DNA of 64,000 bases. Origin: an uncultured Thermococci archaeon. GTDB taxonomy: Archaea > Methanobacteriota_B > Thermococci > Methanofastidiosales > Methanofastidiosaceae. Below are positions 16,110 to 61,205 of this stretch, in pieces. The notes below the pieces were generated by a model. It saw only the letters and a program-made list of their open reading frames with translations, was not told the DNA's origin and ran no database searches. The DNA lies in the NCBI GenBank assembly GCA_964521515.1, contig CAZFRW010000001.1, positions 7,639 to 71,638 on the forward strand, in the 5' to 3' direction. Every line of letters begins with the position of its first letter. Within the stretch, counting starts at the first letter, position 1. Made by a program: the position numbers and the translations under genes.

Positions 16110-16127
16110 TTAATTATTTATTTTTTT

Positions 16128-17270
16128 ATTGGAGAGGGTAAAACGAATAAATTCCTGTCAGGTGAGTGCTTAGAATCATTAAGATTTGAACATGTAACCA
16201 AAGTATACAAAGAATCAAAAGCCATAGAAGATCTTTCATTTGAGATATGCAAGGGTGAACTTTTCGTAATATTGGGCTCCAGCGGCTCTGGCAAGACAAC
16301 AACTTTGAGATTAATCAATAGGTTAATCGATCCAGATGAAGGGACAGTTTATCTCAATGGAAACGACACTAAAACTATGGATCCAGTCAAGCTTAGAAGA
16401 AAAATAGGATACGTAATACAGCAGATTGGTCTTTTCCCACATATGACGGTCAAAGAAAATATTGGTCTGATACCCAATTTAGAAAAATGGAAGGAAGAGG
16501 ATATTTCAAACAGGATTGATGAGCTTCTTACTCTAGTTGCACTGCCACCTGATCTATTCAGATCTCGTTACCCAAACCAATTAAGCGGAGGCCAGCAACA
16601 GAGGATTGGGCTTGCAAGAGCTCTTGTTATGGATCCACCTTTATTACTCATGGACGAACCTTTTGGTGCTCTTGACCCTCTTTTAAGAATGCAACTTCAA
16701 AATGAATTTCTTTCAATAAAAAGAAAGTTGGACAAAACAATTGTTTTTGTTACCCATGATATAGAAGAAAGTTTCATTTTAGCCGATAGGATTGGGGTCA
16801 TGCACGGCGGGAAAATGCTCCAGATTGGAACACCTTCTGAATTATTATTTGAACCTGCAAACGACATAGTTTCAAAAATAATTGGGGCTGAAAATAAATT
16901 CAAGGCCATCAAATTTCTTCTGGCAAAAGATGTAATGATACCTCTTGATAAGAATTGTGTCATTGAATCAGATATTTCATGTAAAGAAGCCATTAGTAAG
17001 ATGATTTCAGACAAAATAGAATCATATATAATAAAAAAATCAAACTCAGATATAGCCCAAATATCATTAATTGATTTATTGAATGAGAAGGATCAGGAGA
17101 AATCTATACTTGATCTCGGAACTAGGGTAAATGTAGTTGTGCCTAGCGATACACTTTCATCAGTAATATCTCTATTAAAATTATCAAATGATTCTATGGT
17201 AGTTGTTATTGAACATGGCAAGGTATTGGGTGTTGTAAGAATAAATTCAGTTTTAATGAACTTAGTTTAG
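16128..17270 (+). CDS. osmoprotectant ABC transporter ATP-binding protein with tandem CBS domains (OpuAA/ProV-like); start codon uncertain
   Basis: Walker A GSSGSGKTT, the LSGGQQQR signature and Walker B LLLMDEPF, with a C-terminal CBS pair. The ABC beta-strand LRFEHVTKVYKESKAIEDLSFEI lies upstream of the first canonical start (TTG 16272). The frame is open from 16110 with no ATG/GTG/TTG. The 16128 boundary is a provisional in-frame ATT. Confidence 0.7.
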   Translation: MGEGKTNKFLSGECLESLRFEHVTKVYKESKAIEDLSFEICKGELFVILGSSGSGKTTTLRLINRLIDPDEGTVYLNGNDTKTMDPVKLRRKIGYVIQQIGLFPHMTVKENIGLIPNLEKWKEEDISNRIDELLTLVALPPDLFRSRYPNQLSGGQQQRIGLARALVMDPPLLLMDEPFGALDPLLRMQLQNEFLSIKRKLDKTIVFVTHDIEESFILADRIGVMHGGKMLQIGTPSELLFEPANDIVSKIIGAENKFKAIKFLLAKDVMIPLDKNCVIESDISCKEAISKMISDKIESYIIKKSNSDIAQISLIDLLNEKDQEKSILDLGTRVNVVVPSDTLSSVISLLKLSNDSMVVVIEHGKVLGVVRINSVLMNLV

Positions 17271-42827: not shown

Positions 42828-43304
42828 ATGGTATACAATCCAAAAACTGATTACTATGAAATGATTGGAGGTATAACCCCATCGTCTAGCATAAGAGATA
42901 TTAAAAAAGCTTACAGGAAAAAAGCTTTAGAGTACCACCCCGATAAAAATCCCGGGAGAGAAGAATCAGCAAAAAATAAATTTCTTGAGCTAAAAGATAT
43001 TTATGAAATCCTTATAGATAAAGAAAAAAAGTCAAAATATGATAGTGATAGAGAGAAATTTTTATCTATTAAAAAAACTGTTAATTATGAAGGGCGTCCA
43101 GGTTGGAACTATACAACTAATCTTAATCTTGACTCTACAAGTCTGGACCCTATCCCAAGAACATTTGTCAAGAGCAGGCCTTATGCAGTTTACGATTACG
43201 CAAAAAGTTCAAATCAGGTCCTTATTAGAATCATTATTTACTCATTCATGTTTATAATGGTTTTAGTGACTATATACATGCTAAGTTTTATCAGGCAACT
43301 ATAA
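42828..43304 (+). CDS. J-domain (DnaJ-like) protein with C-terminal transmembrane anchor
   Basis: DYYEMIGGITPSSSIRDIKKAYRKKALEYHPDKNP is a canonical J-domain with the HPD motif. The C-terminus has a hydrophobic helix (IIIYSFMFIMVLVTIYML). Confidence 0.7.
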   Translation: MVYNPKTDYYEMIGGITPSSSIRDIKKAYRKKALEYHPDKNPGREESAKNKFLELKDIYEILIDKEKKSKYDSDREKFLSIKKTVNYEGRPGWNYTTNLNLDSTSLDPIPRTFVKSRPYAVYDYAKSSNQVLIRIIIYSFMFIMVLVTIYMLSFIRQL

Positions 43305-44148
43305 GGGCCTTCTTTTCGATATACTTTTCGACCATCTTCGCGCTCAACAGGGGAAGTTTTAAGCTTATTAGTGTTTTTTCTGCTGCAATTCTCTTCAAGA
43401 TTTCACTTGCTTTTGGATCAGTGGATATCCTTTCAAGATTAGAAAAAAATTCTGGGGAATTCAATTTAGAAAGGGCCGTAGCAATGTCTTCTTCTTTAAA
43501 TCTTCCCTTCTTTGGTATTATATCCTCTACAAGTTTGTCGAGTGATTTCATATCAAACTTCTCAGACATGTAGTCATAGATTTTGTTATTGAAAGATTCT
43601 CTTATTGATAAGAGAAGCATAGCTATGTCAAAATCTTCTGTGAGTTCTTCAACTTCCATTCTCTTGACACACTTCCAGCCTTTGTAGTTACCGAGAAAAT
43701 GGACCATCTCCTTACCCGAAACAACTTTGCTCCCTTTGTCTTCAATAGGATTCTGTCCAAGATAATTATCAAGGACAGCAGGTGTAAGTCTTTCAATCCC
43801 TAATTTTTCTAAGACCATTTCTGTAAGTATACCCTTTGCAATATCTTTTGCTTCTTTTATGTCTGCAATTTCTGATAATTTTTTCGTAGTCTTGGGAGAT
43901 TTTGCCTTGTAAAGTGCACCAGAAATAGTTTTTTCATCTTTTATTATCGAGTCAACTATTTCCTGAATAAAATTTAGATTAAATCCTTGGCCTAAATACT
44001 CAAAGATCTTTTCATTAAATGATTCTCTTATCGAGAGTAATAATCGTGCAATATCAAGTTTCTCTTTCTCATCAAGGGGATCAAAACCTTTGTAACATTT
44101 CCATCCCTTGTAGTTACCGATAAACTCAACTTTTTCTGGCATGGCCAT
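43291..44148 (-). CDS. hypothetical protein with internal tandem duplication of a roughly 140-aa module
   Basis: Two copies of a module containing GNYKGWKC(Y/V)K...D(I/F)..(A/I)..LLLSIRESFN(E/N)KI(F/Y)(E/D)Y. The repeat is also visible at the DNA level (cttgtagttaccga occurs twice). Confidence 0.55.
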   Translation of the reverse strand: MAMPEKVEFIGNYKGWKCYKGFDPLDEKEKLDIARLLLSIRESFNEKIFEYLGQGFNLNFIQEIVDSIIKDEKTISGALYKAKSPKTTKKLSEIADIKEAKDIAKGILTEMVLEKLGIERLTPAVLDNYLGQNPIEDKGSKVVSGKEMVHFLGNYKGWKCVKRMEVEELTEDFDIAMLLLSIRESFNNKIYDYMSEKFDMKSLDKLVEDIIPKKGRFKEEDIATALSKLNSPEFFSNLERISTDPKASEILKRIAAEKTLISLKLPLLSAKMVEKYIEKKALIVA

Positions 44149-45171: not shown

Positions 45172-45340
45172 TAACATATATAAATATTAGATTTTAATTA
45201 ATGTTGTGAACACTTTATCGGAAATATTTGGATTTGTAGTTTAATTCAAATTATTCGATATTTAAAACTCGGCCTTAATATCCGAATTTTAAATAATTTA
45301 ATAAATCAATAGAAAAGTATTTTAATATTCATGAAATAAA

Positions 45341-46402
45341 ATGTTAATAGGTGCTTTGATGGAAGATGACGTGTCCCTCATAATGTCGAAATTGATGGAA
45401 AAGGGTTATACGGAAGCTCAAATAAAAGAGAAAATAAGAATAAAAAAAGAATCCTTAATGTACGATATAACAACAAAAGGAATCCTTTCTATGATTGCTT
45501 CCGAGGAAGGAATAGTCCTGCCCGGCAAGGAAGATATCAAGATCGATTTGCTGAAAGAGGGAATGAAAGACGTTAATGTAGTTGGTCGGGTTTCAAGAAA
45601 GTATGCCCCAAAGGAATTTATACGAGATGACGGGTCCCGGGGCGTAGTCTTAAATTTGGTGATTTCGGATAAGACTGGAGAAATTGCAGTAGTATTCTGG
45701 GATGAGAACGCTGTTAAGTCTTATGAGATCTTAAACAGAGGGGACATCATAAAGATAATTTCTGGGCAGGTCAAAGGTGGAATGAAAGGTCCCCAGCTCC
45801 ATATTACTTCAAAAAGTAAGATAATTATTAATCCAGAGGGTTTTGATGAATCTTCTTTACCAGATAATTCTAGCTTCAAATCCCTAAAATATCAAAGAGC
45901 TATGTTGTCAGAATTAAACCCTGGCGACAAGTTTAAAGAAATTAGGGGCACAATAGCCAAACTATACTCTGTATTTTTTTACGATGGATGCCCCAAATGT
46001 TTTAAAAAAATGGATGCCACCCAGAAAGGATTCTGTAAGAACTGTAAACTTGAAGTATATCCTCTAAAAGTCATCATATTAGACCTCGGTATAGATGATT
46101 CAACAGGATACATCAGAGCTTCATTTTTCAAAGACAAGGCTGAGAAAGTTCTAGGTGCAAGTGCTGATCAAATTTACCAAGGCGTAAAAAGTTATCTTGA
46201 GAAAGGATTTAATTTGAAAAATTCGGGCGAAGCATATTTATCTGACAATCACTACAGTTTGTTGGGGAAAGAAGTATTAATCACAGGAAACGTTTTAGAA
46301 AGCGAGTATGTTGGAAGCGTATTTCAGGTCCACAATATATCTGATATTGATGTAGAAGAAGAGATCGAGAGGGTATTAGAGGTTATAGGAAAGGAGATGT
46401 AA
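45341..46402 (+). CDS. replication protein A large subunit (RPA41-like; OB folds plus zinc finger)
   Basis: Two OB-fold regions and a C4 zinc finger (CPKCFKK...CKNCK), as in archaeal RPA/RPA70-like ssDNA-binding proteins. Confidence 0.75.
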   Translation: MLIGALMEDDVSLIMSKLMEKGYTEAQIKEKIRIKKESLMYDITTKGILSMIASEEGIVLPGKEDIKIDLLKEGMKDVNVVGRVSRKYAPKEFIRDDGSRGVVLNLVISDKTGEIAVVFWDENAVKSYEILNRGDIIKIISGQVKGGMKGPQLHITSKSKIIINPEGFDESSLPDNSSFKSLKYQRAMLSELNPGDKFKEIRGTIAKLYSVFFYDGCPKCFKKMDATQKGFCKNCKLEVYPLKVIILDLGIDDSTGYIRASFFKDKAEKVLGASADQIYQGVKSYLEKGFNLKNSGEAYLSDNHYSLLGKEVLITGNVLESEYVGSVFQVHNISDIDVEEEIERVLEVIGKEM

Positions 46403-46713
46403 TGAAACAATCTTTCTCTATTGAAAAGGACATACGCGAAATCAAAGGTGACGAAACATTAGTTTCTTTTATAGGTGTAGTAGTATCTATTGATCCATCA
46501 ACATATATGCTGATAATTGATGATGGGACAGGAGCATTAAGCGTTTCATCAGATTCACTTTACAATGTGGAAAAGATTTTAAGGATTGTAGGAAGCCCCT
46601 ACAAAGAAGGTGGGCAGATAATCGTGAACTCTGAAATAATTCAGGATTTCACTGATTTTAATTTTGATCTCTTTAGAAAAGTTCAACAAATTGAGAAGGA
46701 GGTCTATCAATGA
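46402..46713 (+). CDS. RPA small subunit (RPA14-like OB-fold protein)
   Basis: 103-aa single-OB-fold-sized protein. Its start overlaps the RPA41 stop (ATGA-like). Gene order matches the Thermococcales-type RPA41-RPA14-RPA32 operon. Confidence 0.5.
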   Translation: MKQSFSIEKDIREIKGDETLVSFIGVVVSIDPSTYMLIIDDGTGALSVSSDSLYNVEKILRIVGSPYKEGGQIIVNSEIIQDFTDFNFDLFRKVQQIEKEVYQ

Positions 46714-47477
46714 AAAAGAGGATGCCCTCTTCTAGGCTTTCTTTAGATGAGATCCAAAAAGGGTATTTTGTAAAACCTGAAGGTGATTTTGCAACTAATT
46801 ATATAATCACTCAAGACGGATTAAAAGTATACAGGCTTAAAGGAGTCGCAACTGTAATGGCTGACCCTAGACTATCTGAGGACGGTACTTATGGCTCTGT
46901 TTTTCTCGACGATGGTACACAGAGCATAGTTGCCCTTGCATTTAGAGAGAATACCAAACTTCTAATTCCAATTAAGAAAGGAGACCTTGTCCAGTTCATG
47001 GCAAAGCTCAGTGAGTGGCAGGGTAAAAAGCAACTTAGTCTTGAAGTATTATCCTTAGTTTCTCCGAATATGTTGACTCTTCACAGAGCTGAATCTGTCC
47101 TTACCTTAATCAGACAGAAAAAATACTTTAAGATTGCGAAGAAAATCTATGAAGAAGAAAATAATGTTAGAAAGGCAATGGATCGTGCTAAAAAAGAAGG
47201 GATTAACCCTGATTTAATAGACGCTATTGAGGAACTTAACTATCTTATCGAGAATACAGAAGAAAACCGTATCTTTGACTCTGACACAGCGATTGAATCG
47301 AGAGTCATGGAGGCCATGGAAAAGCTTGATGAAGGAGATGGAGTAGTCCTTGATCTCATACTCTACGAGCTGAAAGATGACTATCTAGCAGAAGACATAG
47401 ATAACGCCGTACGAGAACTTTTGTCAAGAGGCGACCTTTATGAACCTAGGGTAAATTACTTTAAGAAGGCCATTTGA
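46710..47477 (+). CDS. RPA middle subunit (RPA32-like: OB fold plus C-terminal winged helix)
   Basis: 255 aa with a central OB-like region and a C-terminal helical/winged-helix-like domain. Third gene of the RPA operon. Confidence 0.55.
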   Translation: MKKRMPSSRLSLDEIQKGYFVKPEGDFATNYIITQDGLKVYRLKGVATVMADPRLSEDGTYGSVFLDDGTQSIVALAFRENTKLLIPIKKGDLVQFMAKLSEWQGKKQLSLEVLSLVSPNMLTLHRAESVLTLIRQKKYFKIAKKIYEEENNVRKAMDRAKKEGINPDLIDAIEELNYLIENTEENRIFDSDTAIESRVMEAMEKLDEGDGVVLDLILYELKDDYLAEDIDNAVRELLSRGDLYEPRVNYFKKAI

Positions 47478-47487
47478 GGGAGGATTT

Positions 47488-48033
47488 ATTATTAGGAGAT
47501 ACCAGATTGGTGTCATTGGCTCTGCAAGTGGCATCATAGGAAATGATTTAAAACTTGTTGCAAAAGAACTTGGAGAGGCCATCGCAAAAAATAATCAAAT
47601 ACTTTTTTCTGGGGCTTGTCCAGGACTTCCATTGGAAGCTACAATAGGTGCAAAAGAAGTTGGGGGAACAACAGTTGGAATATCTCCTGCAATAAATTTT
47701 AAAGAGCATGTTGAAGACTATAAATACCCATCCGATATATTTGATTCTATCATCTTTACAGGTTCTGGTTACAAAGGAAGAAATGTAACTCTTGTTAGAA
47801 GTTGTGATGCAGTTATTTCAGTTCAGGGAATGATGGGCACTTTAAATGAGCTTACAATAGCGTATGATGAAAAGAAGATTGTTGGATTGTTATTGGGAAC
47901 TGGTGGAGCATCCGATATTTTTTTAGATGTGCTGAAGAAAATGGGTAAGTCAAATGAGAATATTTTATCTTCAGATGACCCTTATTTATTAGTTGAAAAA
48001 ATAATAGATAGTTTAAACATTCTTTCTCAATAA
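47488..48033 (+). CDS. SLOG/TIGR00725-family Rossmann-fold protein (LOG/DprA-like); non-canonical start
   Basis: The conserved N-terminus YQIGVIGSASG...ILFSGACPGLPLEATIGAKEVGGTTVGISP is in a frame open from 47455, with no ATG/GTG/TTG before TTG 47632. GAGGGAGGA at 47476-84 is followed by ATT ATT (47488-93), so 47488 is a provisional ATT start. Confidence 0.6.
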   Translation: MIRRYQIGVIGSASGIIGNDLKLVAKELGEAIAKNNQILFSGACPGLPLEATIGAKEVGGTTVGISPAINFKEHVEDYKYPSDIFDSIIFTGSGYKGRNVTLVRSCDAVISVQGMMGTLNELTIAYDEKKIVGLLLGTGGASDIFLDVLKKMGKSNENILSSDDPYLLVEKIIDSLNILSQ

Positions 48034-48825
48034 TAATTTTTCTAAATACTCTTTTTTGAGCTCCATACCAAACATATCACCTTCTCTATGGTAGTCAGAA
48101 CCTGCAGTGGGGATAAGTGAGTATTTTTCTGCAAGTTTTAGGTATTGTGCCTCTTCTTCTTTGGTGTGTTTGGAGTAATATACTTCAAGCCCTCCTAGGC
48201 CAATATCAGATAGGTAAGCTATGAAGTTTTCAAGATCTTCTTTTTCTAAAAATGTATACTTTGGATGGGCCAACACCGGAACTCCTTTGTACTTTTTAAT
48301 CAATTCAATTGCCTTTCTTATATCAGGCCTTTCCTTTGGAACATAACAAGGTTTGTCGTTTCCAATATATTTTTCAAAAGCTTCAGGGAAAGTAGAAACA
48401 TAACCTTTTTTCACCATGAGGTCTGCGATATGTGGTCTTCCGATGTTTCCTTCCGCACTTGCTTTTAGCTCTTCCATGGTGATTTCAAATCCAAGATCTC
48501 CTAATTTCTTAAGCATTTTATGATTTCTTTCTTCCCTTGAATTTTTTAGTTTATTTATAAAGCTCTGAAATTTTAAATCTGTGTAATCTATGAAATAACC
48601 TAGCATGTGAATCTGCTTTTCATGTTTTGCACTTATCTCAAGAGCAGGGATTAATCTTATTCCTTTTTCATTTGCAGCCTTCATACCTTCGGGTATTCCA
48701 TCAATCGTGTCGTGATCTGCAATAGCTATTGTATCTAATCCATTCTCTTTAGCTTTAGCTATTATTTCTGTGGGGGAGAGAAGACCATCTGAGGCTGTGG
48801 TGTGAACGTGTAAATCTACTTTCAT
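48013..48825 (-). CDS. PHP-domain metal-dependent phosphoesterase
   Basis: MKVDLHVHTTASDG...AIADHDT PHP motifs I and II; 270 aa. Confidence 0.75.
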   Translation of the reverse strand: MKVDLHVHTTASDGLLSPTEIIAKAKENGLDTIAIADHDTIDGIPEGMKAANEKGIRLIPALEISAKHEKQIHMLGYFIDYTDLKFQSFINKLKNSREERNHKMLKKLGDLGFEITMEELKASAEGNIGRPHIADLMVKKGYVSTFPEAFEKYIGNDKPCYVPKERPDIRKAIELIKKYKGVPVLAHPKYTFLEKEDLENFIAYLSDIGLGGLEVYYSKHTKEEEAQYLKLAEKYSLIPTAGSDYHREGDMFGMELKKEYLEKLLLRKNV

Positions 48826-59993: not shown

Positions 59994-60633
59994 TATAACA
60001 CCTCATGAATCTATAAAGTTCAACTTCAATCAGTACTTTTCTTTTCTTATGTACTTGAAACATCGCTTTTATTGGAAAATTGAAACTCTCTTTTTCAACT
60101 AGTTCAAAACTCTTCTCCAAAGCAACATTTCTGATGAAATCATAGTTCCCTTTCTTATGCAAGGAATACACAACATTTCCTATTTCAAAAGCCTTTTTCA
60201 AAAAATTGGTGTCCATATTCCTCTTTTTTGTACCAAAAGGCGGATTTTGAATAATAGTGTCCCCTCGCAGGAGGACGTCTAAAACGTCACCATCCTTAAT
60301 CTCGTATTCTCCTAAGATTTGATTACTTTTTAAAGTTAATGTTTTTAAATTATCGTTTAAAATCTCTATAGCCCTTTTATCTTTCTCTACAAAGTATACT
60401 TTTTTAGCTCCTAGTAGGAGAGAAGCTATCCCAAGTCTTCCAGTACCGGCTCCAAGATCAATTATGGTCTTCCCTTCTACATCTCCTCGGTGGTATGCAA
60501 ATAATACTATTTCGGCAGCAATATCCCCTGGTGTAGTGTACTGTTCCTCAAACATTTTGGGGTCTTCCATCTCTTTTAGATTAGAAAGAAATATTTCAAG
60601 CTGTTTTTTTCTCACAAAAATTAAAAATATCAA
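59971..60633 (-). CDS. N6-adenine-specific RNA methyltransferase (METTL5/RsmD-like, NPPFG motif)
   Basis: SAM motif I IIDLGAGTGRLG and catalytic IQNPPFG. Canonical partner of csl4 in the second exosome operon. Confidence 0.8.
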   Translation of the reverse strand: MIFLIFVRKKQLEIFLSNLKEMEDPKMFEEQYTTPGDIAAEIVLFAYHRGDVEGKTIIDLGAGTGRLGIASLLLGAKKVYFVEKDKRAIEILNDNLKTLTLKSNQILGEYEIKDGDVLDVLLRGDTIIQNPPFGTKKRNMDTNFLKKAFEIGNVVYSLHKKGNYDFIRNVALEKSFELVEKESFNFPIKAMFQVHKKRKVLIEVELYRFMRCYNGSKWRD

Positions 60634-61139
60634 AGGTATAAAAAGCCTACCTTTGATTGAAGAAATTGTTTTACTCCTTTATTTCTCATTATTATTTCCA
60701 TCAGTATGCCGAGTATAATAATTTCAGCAAACGCCTTCGCCAATATGGTGTATACAACAGGTAATGGAAGTCCGTATGGGATTTTTAATACTACAAGAGT
60801 TAGATATGTTAAAAAGGCTTCAGGCAGGTACCCAAAAAAGACCGCTATACCAGGTCTTGTCTTTTTGGACAGAATAGCAACAAAAATTCCTGTTAAGGCT
60901 TTAAATGGAGGAACGAAAAAATTCCCAAAAGTAACGCCCGGCCATATGCCGACTATAAATCCTGTAATACCTCCAAATATTGGGCCTAGTAATATAGCAG
61001 ATAAAACTGTACCTATGTGGGACAGATCAAGATAAACATTTGGCACCGGCGTTGGAATAAGTAGTATTGTTCCAAATAGAATCCCTATAGCTGCAAAAAT
61101 TGCTGTGAAGGCGATATTCTTTGAACTTTTTGCTTTCAG
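60630..61139 (-). CDS. bioY: biotin transporter BioY (ECF S-component); non-canonical start
   Basis: FAAIGILFGTILLIPTPVPNVYLDLSHIGTVLSAILLGPIFGG matches the BioY N-terminal pattern (IP...PVP.TLQ...V.L.G.LLGP..G). This helix lies upstream of the first canonical start (GTG 61046). The frame is open to 61160 with only ATT (61157) or CTG (61139) as candidate starts. Confidence 0.6.
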   Translation of the reverse strand: MKAKSSKNIAFTAIFAAIGILFGTILLIPTPVPNVYLDLSHIGTVLSAILLGPIFGGITGFIVGIWPGVTFGNFFVPPFKALTGIFVAILSKKTRPGIAVFFGYLPEAFLTYLTLVVLKIPYGLPLPVVYTILAKAFAEIIILGILMEIIMRNKGVKQFLQSKVGFLYL

Positions 61140-61205
61140 TGAATCACCAAAAAAAATTAATTAAGAGCATATATAAATATTTGGGTAGATACTTAAAAAT
61201 GGGTA

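Follow-up and report, generated by a model that had tools for sequence, protein, structure and literature searches.

In the uncultured methanogen Methanofastidiosum, the gene that closes the RPA41-RPA14-RPA32 transcription unit in the 64-kb stretch of DNA analysed here (the window) probably encodes a full-length SLOG protein of 180 residues, whose translation would be led by a Shine-Dalgarno (SD) element, start at the near-cognate codon AUU 47491 and give a weak output. We put the probability of this reading, which rests on comparative sequence analysis, at about 0.7.

Results

The reading frame behind the RPA genes lacks a canonical start codon

A putative BRE/TATA-like promoter element (AGAAAAGTATTTTAATATTC, 45311-45330, plus strand), recognised from the sequence, is nearly invariant upstream of RPA41 in the window and 13 related loci. 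It is followed on the plus strand by an RPA41-like gene for the large subunit of replication factor A (45359-46402; NCBIfam PRK08402, E 3.7e-85; Pfam OB fold and Rep_fac-A_C), with ATG 45359 as conserved start and ATG 45341 being specific to the window, an RPA14-like gene (46402-46713; Pfam Rep_fac-A_3, 24.4 bits vs a cut-off of 23.5), which overlaps the RPA41 stop by 1 nt, and an RPA32-like gene (46710-47477; OB fold and weak RPA_C matches), which overlaps RPA14 by 4 nt. The C-terminal tail of RPA32, which ends with YEPRVNYFKKAI directly before the stop, hardly varies among most relatives; L006 and L008-L010 show a few substitutions. A convergent PHP-domain gene on the minus strand (48013-48825; Pfam PHP, E 8e-14) is kept in all related loci; its 3' end overlaps that of the SLOG gene (47491-48033, plus strand, 180 aa plus stop) by 21 nt and marks the end of the transcription unit. 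SLOG is likely the last gene of this unit, co-transcribed with RPA41-RPA14-RPA32.

The SLOG reading frame opens at 47455, directly after TAA 47452-47454, and the RPA32 stop TGA occupies 47475-47477. ATG, GTG and TTG are absent from the in-frame codons 47455-47631, the first being TTG at 47632-47634 (plus strand), which public gene callers take as start, resulting in 133-aa products. An SD-like sequence, GAGGGAGGA (47476-47484, plus strand), begins within the RPA32 stop codon and is followed by ATT ATT at 47488-47493, the first ATT (47488-47490) lying 10 nt and the second (47491-47493) 13 nt behind the RPA32 stop. The original prediction had described exactly this junction, i.e. no in-frame ATG, GTG or TTG ahead of a conserved N-terminal strand, an SD-like sequence shortly before ATT ATT and a gap of about 10 nt after the RPA operon. 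A start-free run of 47 codons is not rare in this genome (P ~0.15), and the missing start goes beyond chance because it is conserved in 17 of 17 related loci. ATA makes up 43% of the Ile codons within the window. Around the SLOG start neither a conserved occluding hairpin nor another conserved RNA structure was found (RNAalifold, -3.9 kcal/mol, 0 compensatory pairs), and an Rfam scan of the entire window gave no family at threshold, hence no 16S gene from which the anti-SD could be read.

An ATT or ATC codon is conserved across the genus

We compared the junction in 17 related Methanofastidiosum loci, comprising 12 GTDB species representatives, three metagenome contigs and two NCBI MAGs. All 17 share a common layout, with the RPA32 stop being followed by a G-rich spacer of 12-15 nt and then by ATT or ATC. 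At the position of 47491 the window has ATT, as do 11 related loci, while the other six have ATC and neither ATA nor ATG occurs, although ATA is present at codon 6 in 11 of 12 loci. Probably no more than one or two ancestral events lie behind each of ATT and ATC. A canonical start is absent in all 17 loci, with a GTG at codon 8 in L004 as the sole exception. In L006 and L102 an in-frame stop is located only two codons ahead of the ATT/ATC codon, leaving just GTT-ATA-ATT or TTT-ATC before the conserved RRYQ. Indels of 1, 2, 3 and 6 nt are confined to the spacer, none occurring downstream of the ATT/ATC codon, which is the boundary between spacer and coding sequence. Every related locus carries a G-rich or GGAGG/GGTGA-type element 4-10 nt upstream of this codon, which in six loci reads AGGGGG, without a GGAGG or GGTGA core. 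The neighbouring genes have canonical starts in the same loci (RPA14, ATG in 13/13; PHP gene, 13/13; RPA32, ATG in 12 and TTG in two).

Outside the genus the family N-terminus reads MKYQIGVIGS.., and of 76 homologous loci 74 begin at a canonical codon, most commonly an ATG four codons ahead of the IGV motif. A start at the ATT/ATC codon would therefore restore the normal family N-terminus, the one from 47491 being one residue longer than the usual MKYQIGV. The alignment proposed earlier as a check also shows that homologues do not begin after TTG 47632. As conservation of ATT/ATC would equally be expected of an internal Ile codon, the start argument rests on the fact that no upstream start is possible. 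Initiation at an ATT, as predicted, is the only consistent reading; of the two candidate ATTs the second is conserved as ATT/ATC, whereas the first varies in 13 of 17 loci.

Codons upstream of TTG 47632 are under purifying selection

The dN/dS ratio (Nei-Gojobori; pS about 0.6) is 0.097 for codons 2-47 vs 0.105 for the remainder of the SLOG gene, and in codons 2-5 all changes are synonymous or R/K only. Purifying selection acts on the 46 codons from 47491 to TTG 47632 as strongly as on the remaining gene, which argues that the N-terminal strand is both conserved and translated, as originally proposed. The PF18306 match begins at residue 16 of the 47455 translation (Y of YQIGVIGSASG), corresponding to profile position 2, which puts the N-terminus of the homologous region ~45 codons ahead of TTG 47632. 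In the AF2 model of the protein (pLDDT 96.5) a strand (5-10), a helix (18-33) and a strand (37-41) all precede TTG 47632; the 133-aa product lacks β1, the Gly-rich loop, α1 and β2 and, judging from the model, would not fold. Upstream of TTG 47632 the gene also encodes YQIGVIGSASGIIGNDLK, a tryptic peptide predicted from the sequence.

The public proteins P0005-P0010 have 133 aa and are 97-100% identical, and P0016-P0023 and others also start at or after TTG 47632. The called starts vary among species (MGAKE, LPFEAT, MIAKNN..), and TTG 47632 lacks conservation as a start. Public Methanofastidiosum records thus mis-annotate the SLOG gene almost without exception, having truncated or inconsistent starts, where comparative analysis fixes a single start codon. 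In this lineage, gene callers limited to ATG, GTG and TTG cut genuine proteins short by their N-terminal strands.

Alternative explanations for the missing start

Initiation might occur at another near-cognate codon, either at the first ATT, 3 nt after GGAGGA, or at the codon 6 ATT at 47506. NCBI annotation of the sister MAGs points in this direction, the -1 ATT being chosen in L101, the codon-6 ATA in L102 and apparently the codon-8 ATT for P0013. Moreover, codon 6 (ATT in the window, ATA elsewhere) is located 6 nt after the AGGAGA of two Arg codons, and this AGG AGA pair provides an SD-like GGAG in the window as well as in roughly half of the loci. In 13 of the 17 loci, however, AGT, TTT, ATA or TCT stands at the position of 47488, where L007, L008 and L101 have ATT, suggesting that the first ATT is probably part of the spacer and not the start. 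Likewise, the AGR AGR pair is AGA AAA, AAA AGA or AGA AGA in several species, so that the SD is lost while the protein still has R/K, and distant homologues have the equivalent residues after their ATG (MKYQ..). We consider a start at either of these codons rather unlikely for the gene as a whole; since the window has ATT at both 47488 and 47491, and L007, L008 and L101 share the ATT at the -1 position, the exact codon in an individual genome is ambiguous.

The gene could also be a decaying pseudogene or yield only the 133-aa product from TTG 47632, as might be read from the missing canonical start and from the many public proteins called there or later. This is very improbable: the 46 upstream codons and the remaining gene have the same dN/dS of ~0.10, which contradicts it, the 17 diverged loci show neither frameshifts nor stops in the gene, the called starts are unconserved, and in the model the shortened protein would be without its central strand and phosphate-binding loop. 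Alternatively, SLOG might be an extension of RPA32 produced by stop-codon read-through or programmed frameshifting at the ATT-TGA junction, given the tiny gap between the genes, a SLOG frame that, in the window, runs past the RPA32 stop without interruption, and two loci (L008 and L011) having both genes in one frame with a single stop between them. The distance from stop to ATT/ATC, however, is 12, 13, 14 or 15 nt depending on the species, the two genes keep no constant frame relation, two in-frame stops are present in L006, the spacer codons are unconserved as protein and the junction shows no conserved RNA structure. On account of the variable spacer and frame and the intervening in-frame stops we rejected such a fusion, to which we give hardly any weight. 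Finally, an assembly or sequencing error could be suspected as the window is a single sequence, whose ECF S-component gene has CTG where relatives have TTG or ATG, but 17 independent assemblies from different projects have the same ATT/ATC codon and no canonical start, refuting this idea, whose probability is close to nil. Initiation at AUU 47491 is the reading we retain.

The protein belongs to SLOG cluster 4

The predicted assignment as a SLOG-type, TIGR00725-related Rossmann protein is borne out by a match to PF18306 (SLOG cluster4, LDcluster4) with 127.5 bits vs a cut-off of 26.3 (E 4.2e-37, profile positions 2-147 of 151). TIGR00725, an NCBIfam hypothetical equivalog, for which a literature search found no papers, matches with 80.4 bits (E 9.4e-23, profile 2-158 of 159), which falls short of the curated cut-off (106.9), so that the protein counts as a relative and not a member of this equivalog group. 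The Pfam and fold analysis suggested to separate LOG, DprA and SLOG favours SLOG cluster 4, with PF03641 (LOG/'lysine decarboxylase-like') scoring 19.3 bits, i.e. below the gathering cut-off of 27, and the DprA/Smf family PF02481 (DNA_processg_A HMM) giving no match at E <= 0.01 in the Pfam scan.

The best sequence-profile matches are TM1055 (PDB 1RCU) and the molybdenum-cofactor (Moco) carrier/binding proteins MCP (2IZ5) and MoBP (6Y01), single-domain proteins of equal size, with E values from 1e-20 to 4.5e-17 (6Y01, 1.1e-20; 2IZ5, 2e-17). They also gave the best Foldseek matches, having TM scores of 0.73-0.81 by query length and 0.82-0.88 by target length at only 28-31% identity. The LOG cytokinin riboside 5'-monophosphate phosphoribohydrolases share superfamily and fold with SLOG (query-normalised TM 0.68-0.78) and have GxxGTxxE, R97 and E120 at the places of the catalytic motifs. 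The LOG motif PGGxGTxxE, as given in one report (PMC8989509), reads QGMMGTLNE in SLOG, with P and the second G missing, whereas G113, G116, T117 and E120 are invariant in the SLOG family alignment, as is R97. The invariant R97 and E120 would be compatible with phosphoribohydrolase catalysis. DprA/Smf structures have the Rossmann core of the SLOG superfamily in common with our protein, but are the poorest fold matches (query-normalised TM 0.64-0.70, 16-18% identity), and the extra DprA domains are missing. Sequence and model thus place the protein closest to TM1055 and the molybdenum-cofactor carriers, with LOG further away and DprA excluded. Membership in a defence system, as known for anti-phage SLOG effectors such as Thoeris ThsA, was rejected, as the protein is single-domain and the PADLOC models gave only a marginal PsyrA match (E 0.003, 14.7 bits).

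Adjacency to RPA genes is confined to Methanofastidiosum

The order RPA41-RPA14-RPA32-SLOG is found in 17 of 17 related loci, all of which extend far enough upstream. As the entire 8-kb neighbourhood is kept across the genus, the adjacency of RPA and SLOG carries little information. We extended the comparison to 80 more distant SLOG cluster-4 loci and searched 5 kb around each with the three RPA proteins by tblastn, which gave no RPA gene (0/80). When the genes directly beside SLOG were scanned at ~65 of the distant loci, the 25 commonest Pfam families did not include an RPA family. The RPA-SLOG synteny was thus seen in every Methanofastidiosum locus and in none of the distant ones, i.e. among the loci compared it is confined to this genus. 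The neighbours at the distant loci include beta-CASP/MBL nuclease (24/65), OMP-decarboxylase-like (8/65), MgtC (15/64) and PRTase (4/64) genes, and in the closest outgroups the SLOG gene is flanked by pyrF-like and pyrE genes; genes for Moco biosynthesis or Moco enzymes are not among the frequent neighbours. These contexts point to nucleotide/RNA metabolism rather than to Moco enzymes.

A functional partnership with RPA, with SLOG acting as a hand-off factor for ssDNA or nucleotides whatever its start codon, would explain the adjacency, and the invariant gene order in the genus, the likely co-transcription and the presence of ssDNA-binding DprA in the SLOG superfamily speak for it. We nevertheless regard such a role as unlikely, given the conservation of the neighbourhood as a whole, the lack of RPA genes near the 80 distant loci, where pyrF-like/pyrE, beta-CASP nuclease and MgtC genes are found instead, and the lack of a DprA Pfam match. 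In addition, gene overlaps typify subunits of complexes (PMC10666635), and the SLOG gene is without the overlap coupling of the RPA genes; its separate position, own SD and weak start speak against a fourth subunit made in stoichiometric amounts. The specific idea of a DprA-like ssDNA hand-off to RPA finds no support in view of the missing DprA match, the poorer DprA folds and the distant loci, and the consequence for RPA biology is little.

Possible near-cognate starts elsewhere in the window

In three of about 75 ORFs in the window homology extends upstream of the first canonical start. One is the SLOG gene, with its genus-wide AUU/AUC. In the gene of an OpuA-type ABC ATPase, ACG is the one near-cognate codon that is conserved and follows a conserved SD, and the ECF S-component gene has CUG where relatives have UUG or AUG. 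Ten further ORFs with at least 13 start-free leading codons emerged from the window-wide survey, and all their Pfam matches begin after the canonical start. Methanofastidiosum might tolerate or exploit near-cognate initiation at SD-led operon genes far more than usual prokaryotes, although we regard this as doubtful. If true, start-codon discrimination would be relaxed or tunable, e.g. via aIF1 or initiator tRNA, and the SLOG AUU, instead of simply attenuating, would switch expression in a sensor-like, fidelity-dependent manner. A literature search on Methanofastidiosa start codons returned nothing evidently relevant by title or abstract.

Discussion

We propose that AUU 47491, or AUC in some sister species, is read by initiator Met-tRNA, presumably giving an N-terminal Met. 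The SD element, running from within the RPA32 stop codon to 6-7 nt before AUU, would position a small subunit that is either newly recruited or has just terminated on RPA32. In archaea aIF1 discriminates against non-canonical starts (PMC6237735); as proofreading of this type would disfavour AUU and AUC, SLOG output should be a small fraction of the AUG level. A low-abundance protein, which probably handles a nucleotide or phospho-ligand, could thereby be expressed from the same mRNA as the abundant RPA complex, and the weak start may serve attenuation and may have been selected to lower expression. Few natural archaeal cases are known, and the SLOG junction provides a well-bounded natural AUU/AUC start kept across an archaeal genus, making the SLOG mRNA usable as a substrate for studying aIF1-dependent start-codon discrimination.

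Conserved AUU start codons are known from the bacterial genes infC and pcnB, and the conserved AUU described here is a new example of an already known phenomenon. In Enterococcus faecalis the rare ATT start of ebpA attenuates EbpA expression (PMC4447247). Like these three, SLOG is an SD-led gene whose near-cognate AUU is kept by orthologues; for ebpA the weak codon was shown to limit protein output. Unlike them, SLOG has an archaeal host, where discrimination is exerted by aIF1 and not IF3 (PMC6237735), and AUC alternates with AUU at its start. SLOG also differs from infC in having no evident link to the initiation machinery, so that infC-style autoregulation is not expected. A further parallel is the Asgard archaeal tubulin gene atubA, for which an ATT start was inferred (PMC13394414): in this MAG gene, too, the deposited protein is without the first β-strand, and with an upstream ATT, plausibly spaced from an RBS, both the fold and the family N-terminus are complete again. 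In contrast to atubA, which stems from one genome, the SLOG codon could be followed through 17 related loci, with selection analysis and the limits set by in-frame stops.

The SLOG gene and its junction with the RPA genes

The SLOG reading frame (+ strand) is opened at 47455 by TAA 47452-47454 and closed by TAA 48031-48033, with TTG 47632, 59 codons from 47455, being the first in-frame ATG, GTG or TTG. The preceding genes are RPA41-, RPA14- and RPA32-like. The last of these ends with TGA 47475-47477 (+), which the Shine-Dalgarno (SD)-like sequence GAGGGAGGA (47476-47484, +; within the string TGAGGGAGGA) overlaps, followed by TTT ATT ATT, with ATT codons at 47488 and 47491. All these elements were found where the original prediction had placed them. 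The translated frame matches Pfam SLOG cluster 4 (PF18306, E 4.2e-37), with profile position 2 falling on the first residue of YQIGVIGSASG, some 45 codons 5' of TTG 47632.

The nearest database proteins come from Candidatus Methanofastidiosum. Public calls starting at the TTG comprise 133 aa and are 97-100% identical; those from other species have 127-162 aa, a small number of NCBI calls reach 171-179 aa, and the JGI, ENA and Logan calls are shortened to 127-162 aa. NCBI records of sister MAGs carry non-canonical starts at three different codons (numbered from 47491): ATT at the -1 codon, one codon ahead of the conserved one, in MAG locus L101 (301-303), ATA at codon 6 in MAG locus L102 (301-303), both read from the retrieved DNA, and the codon-8 position in the database protein P0013, probably ATT as judged from locus L010. 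The NCBI pipeline thus assigns non-canonical starts to this gene and places them inconsistently.

Conservation of the predicted start

We compared 17 related Methanofastidiosum loci, 12 with start region from a scan of species-representative genomes, three from a metagenome scan and two from NCBI. All have the same junction order, i.e. RPA32 tail (as a rule ..YEPRVNYFKKAI, some species carrying a few substitutions), stop codon, a G-rich spacer of 12-15 nt, one variable codon and an ATH codon (ATT in 11, ATC in six), followed by AGR AGR TAY CAR ATA GGN GTN ATH GGN. No in-frame canonical start was found at the junction in any of the 17 loci, the lone GTG being codon 8 of L004. ATA never occupies the start position, yet it accounts for 43% of the Ile codons of the window and is found at codon 6 in 11 of 12 cases. 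Indels (1, 2, 3 and 6 nt) are restricted to the spacer and absent 3' of ATH. The ratio dN/dS (Nei-Gojobori, 12 sequences, pS ~0.6) is 0.097 over codons 2-47 against 0.105 further 3', indicating that the region 5' of the TTG is translated and constrained like the rest of the gene. Neighbouring genes in the same loci start canonically (RPA14 and PHP with ATG in 13/13 each, RPA32 with ATG in 12 and TTG in two), as do 74 of 76 homologous loci outside Methanofastidiosum, most commonly with an ATG that precedes the IGV motif by four codons (MKYKI/MKYQI). Homologues therefore do not begin after TTG 47632, confirming that the N-terminal strand is conserved, and translation from ATH would give back the ordinary family N-terminus plus one extra residue.

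These data support the proposed ATT initiation and assign it to one codon of the ATT pair, 47491, to which the conserved ATH corresponds in the alignment. At 47488 the loci vary (AGT, TTT, ATA or TCT in 13/17; ATT in L007, L008 and L101). Two of them, L006 and L102, have an in-frame stop two codons 5' of ATH, so that initiation there must fall within GTT-ATA-ATT or TTT-ATC. Individual genomes are unlikely to use the -1 codon or codon 6 instead: neither codon is conserved, and the SD-like AGGAGA ahead of codon 6 is not conserved either, whereas the R/K-R/K-Y-Q residues are. A 133-aa product starting at the TTG would lack β1, the Gly-rich loop, α1 and β2 and is contradicted by the selection data; the SLOG fold was predicted with a pLDDT of 96.5. 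An RPA32-SLOG fusion by frameshifting or read-through is excluded, as spacer length and frame vary and stops intervene, and 17 independent assemblies exclude a sequencing error as source of the missing start. No conserved RNA structure was found around the SLOG start.

Protein family

Pfam places the SLOG gene product in SLOG cluster 4, a known, uncharacterised family. Of the SLOG/DprA-like assignment made originally the SLOG part holds, while the Pfam search gave no match to DprA and LOG (PF03641) scored under the gathering threshold; the NCBIfam equivalog TIGR00725 reached 80.4 bits, under its cut-off of 106.9. A family profile matched 6Y01, a Moco-binding protein of cyanobacteria, at E 1e-20, the Moco carrier protein of Chlamydomonas (2IZ5) at 2e-17 and TM1055 of Thermotoga (1RCU) at 4.5e-17, with LOG enzymes at 1e-7 to 1e-4. 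Query-normalised Foldseek TM values agree with this order (0.73-0.81 for 1RCU/6Y01/2IZ5, 0.68-0.78 for LOGs, 0.64-0.70 for DprA). The LOG motif PGGxGTxxE is altered to QGMMGTLNE; the invariant R97 and E120 are kept. The protein probably binds, and may hydrolyse, a phosphorylated nucleotide-like ligand.

Expression and relation to RPA

The RPA operon is preceded by a BRE/TATA-like element, AGAAAAGTATTTTAATATTC (45311-45330), that is near-invariant in relatives, and the conserved RPA41 start is ATG 45359 behind AGGTG (45349-45353). ATG 45341, chosen by mechanical ORF calling, was rejected since relatives have ACG, AAG, TCG, AGA, TTT or AAA there; in L006-L008 an in-frame TAA follows one codon after this position. 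No comparable element was seen before the SLOG gene, and from this and the 13-nt gap to RPA32 it is natural to infer that SLOG is co-transcribed with the RPA genes. The SD beginning in the RPA32 stop would position a small subunit, whether freshly recruited or coming straight from RPA32 termination, so that AUU 47491 lies close to the P site, where initiator tRNA would pair with two of three bases. AIF1 disfavours such near-cognate initiation complexes (PMC6237735), so a low SLOG yield would be expected. ATT has not once been replaced by ATG despite divergence that saturates synonymous sites, which fits, but does not prove, a weak start under selection; for ebpA, experiments have demonstrated a weak-start effect of its ATT (PMC4447247).

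The functional link to RPA suggested originally, with a possible ssDNA hand-off, is not supported. The order ketopantoate-reductase-like gene, RPA41, RPA14, RPA32, SLOG and convergent PHP is identical in every Methanofastidiosum locus, rendering the adjacency uninformative within the genus, and tblastn with the three RPA proteins detected no RPA genes near 80 more distant SLOG cluster-4 loci (38-55% identity). Immediate neighbours there include a β-CASP/MBL nuclease (24/65), an OMP-decarboxylase-like gene (8/65), MgtC (15/64) and a phosphoribosyltransferase (4/64), and the two closest outgroup proteins have pyrE (TIGR00336 at 143 bits, exceeding the cut-off) on one side and a pyrF-like gene on the other. 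The commonest setting outside Methanofastidiosum (metagenome loci L021-L097) has the nuclease, aCPSF1/Cas14-like by NCBIfam at scores under the cut-offs, directly 5' and MgtC 3'. RPA41/RPA14 and RPA14/RPA32 overlap by 1 nt (46400-46402) and 4 nt (46710-46713), and -1/-4 nt overlaps are typical of termination-reinitiation coupling and complex subunits, coupling being almost abolished by gaps of ~20 nt (PMC10666635). Within the unit only SLOG stands apart by a positive gap, and this gap, its own SD and the weak start argue against the protein being a stoichiometric RPA partner.

Other genes without a canonical start

Conserved homology likewise precedes the first canonical start in the gene of an OpuA/ProV-type ABC ATPase (16110-17270, +): no ATG, GTG or TTG stands in frame ahead of its Walker A motif, TTG at codon 54 is the earliest, and the ABC_tran profile begins at residue 40. 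At 16131-16137 lies a conserved SD-like GGAGAGG, and 5 nt further on ACG 16143, the sole near-cognate codon common to the four sequences compared (window, L098, L099 and L100), at which the gene possibly initiates. The window has TTA 16170, TTA 16179 and GTA 16194 where relatives have TTG, TTG and GTG, and in two sister MAGs the start called by NCBI is ATT, but at a different position in each. In an ECF S-component gene (60630-61160, -) the Pfam match begins 26 codons 5' of the first canonical start. CTG 61139-61137 (-), 4 nt past GGTGA, falls precisely on the aligned start (M/L) of the database proteins P0121, P0122 and P0126 (86-93% identical) and may be either a genome-specific start or a single-base error. 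No further case was found among ten more window candidates surveyed. Three start-less genes in ~75 window ORFs exceed the usual rate, which motivates the idea of lineage-wide near-cognate initiation in Methanofastidiosum, although we consider this unlikely.

The distant metagenome SLOG cluster-4 homologues L089 (match 335-850) and L095 also lack a canonical start. The start of L089 reads IKPTPHTHLKFK.. against MKP.. or VKP.. in close relatives, suggesting that another lineage has an ATH start of independent origin. Separately, a 285-aa hypothetical protein (43291-44148, -) is an internal tandem duplication, residues ~1-140 and 142-282 cross-aligning with ~40% identity (tblastn, relatives).

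Bacteria offer well-known cases of near-cognate AUU starts. Recent work infers an AUU start for a tubulin gene of Asgard archaea (PMC13394414), and in Haloferax ribosome profiling ~30% of the alternative initiation sites were near-cognate, but were set aside (PMC7261190). The SLOG start is a new, unusually well-bounded and genus-wide archaeal example, with a mechanism that is not of a new kind.
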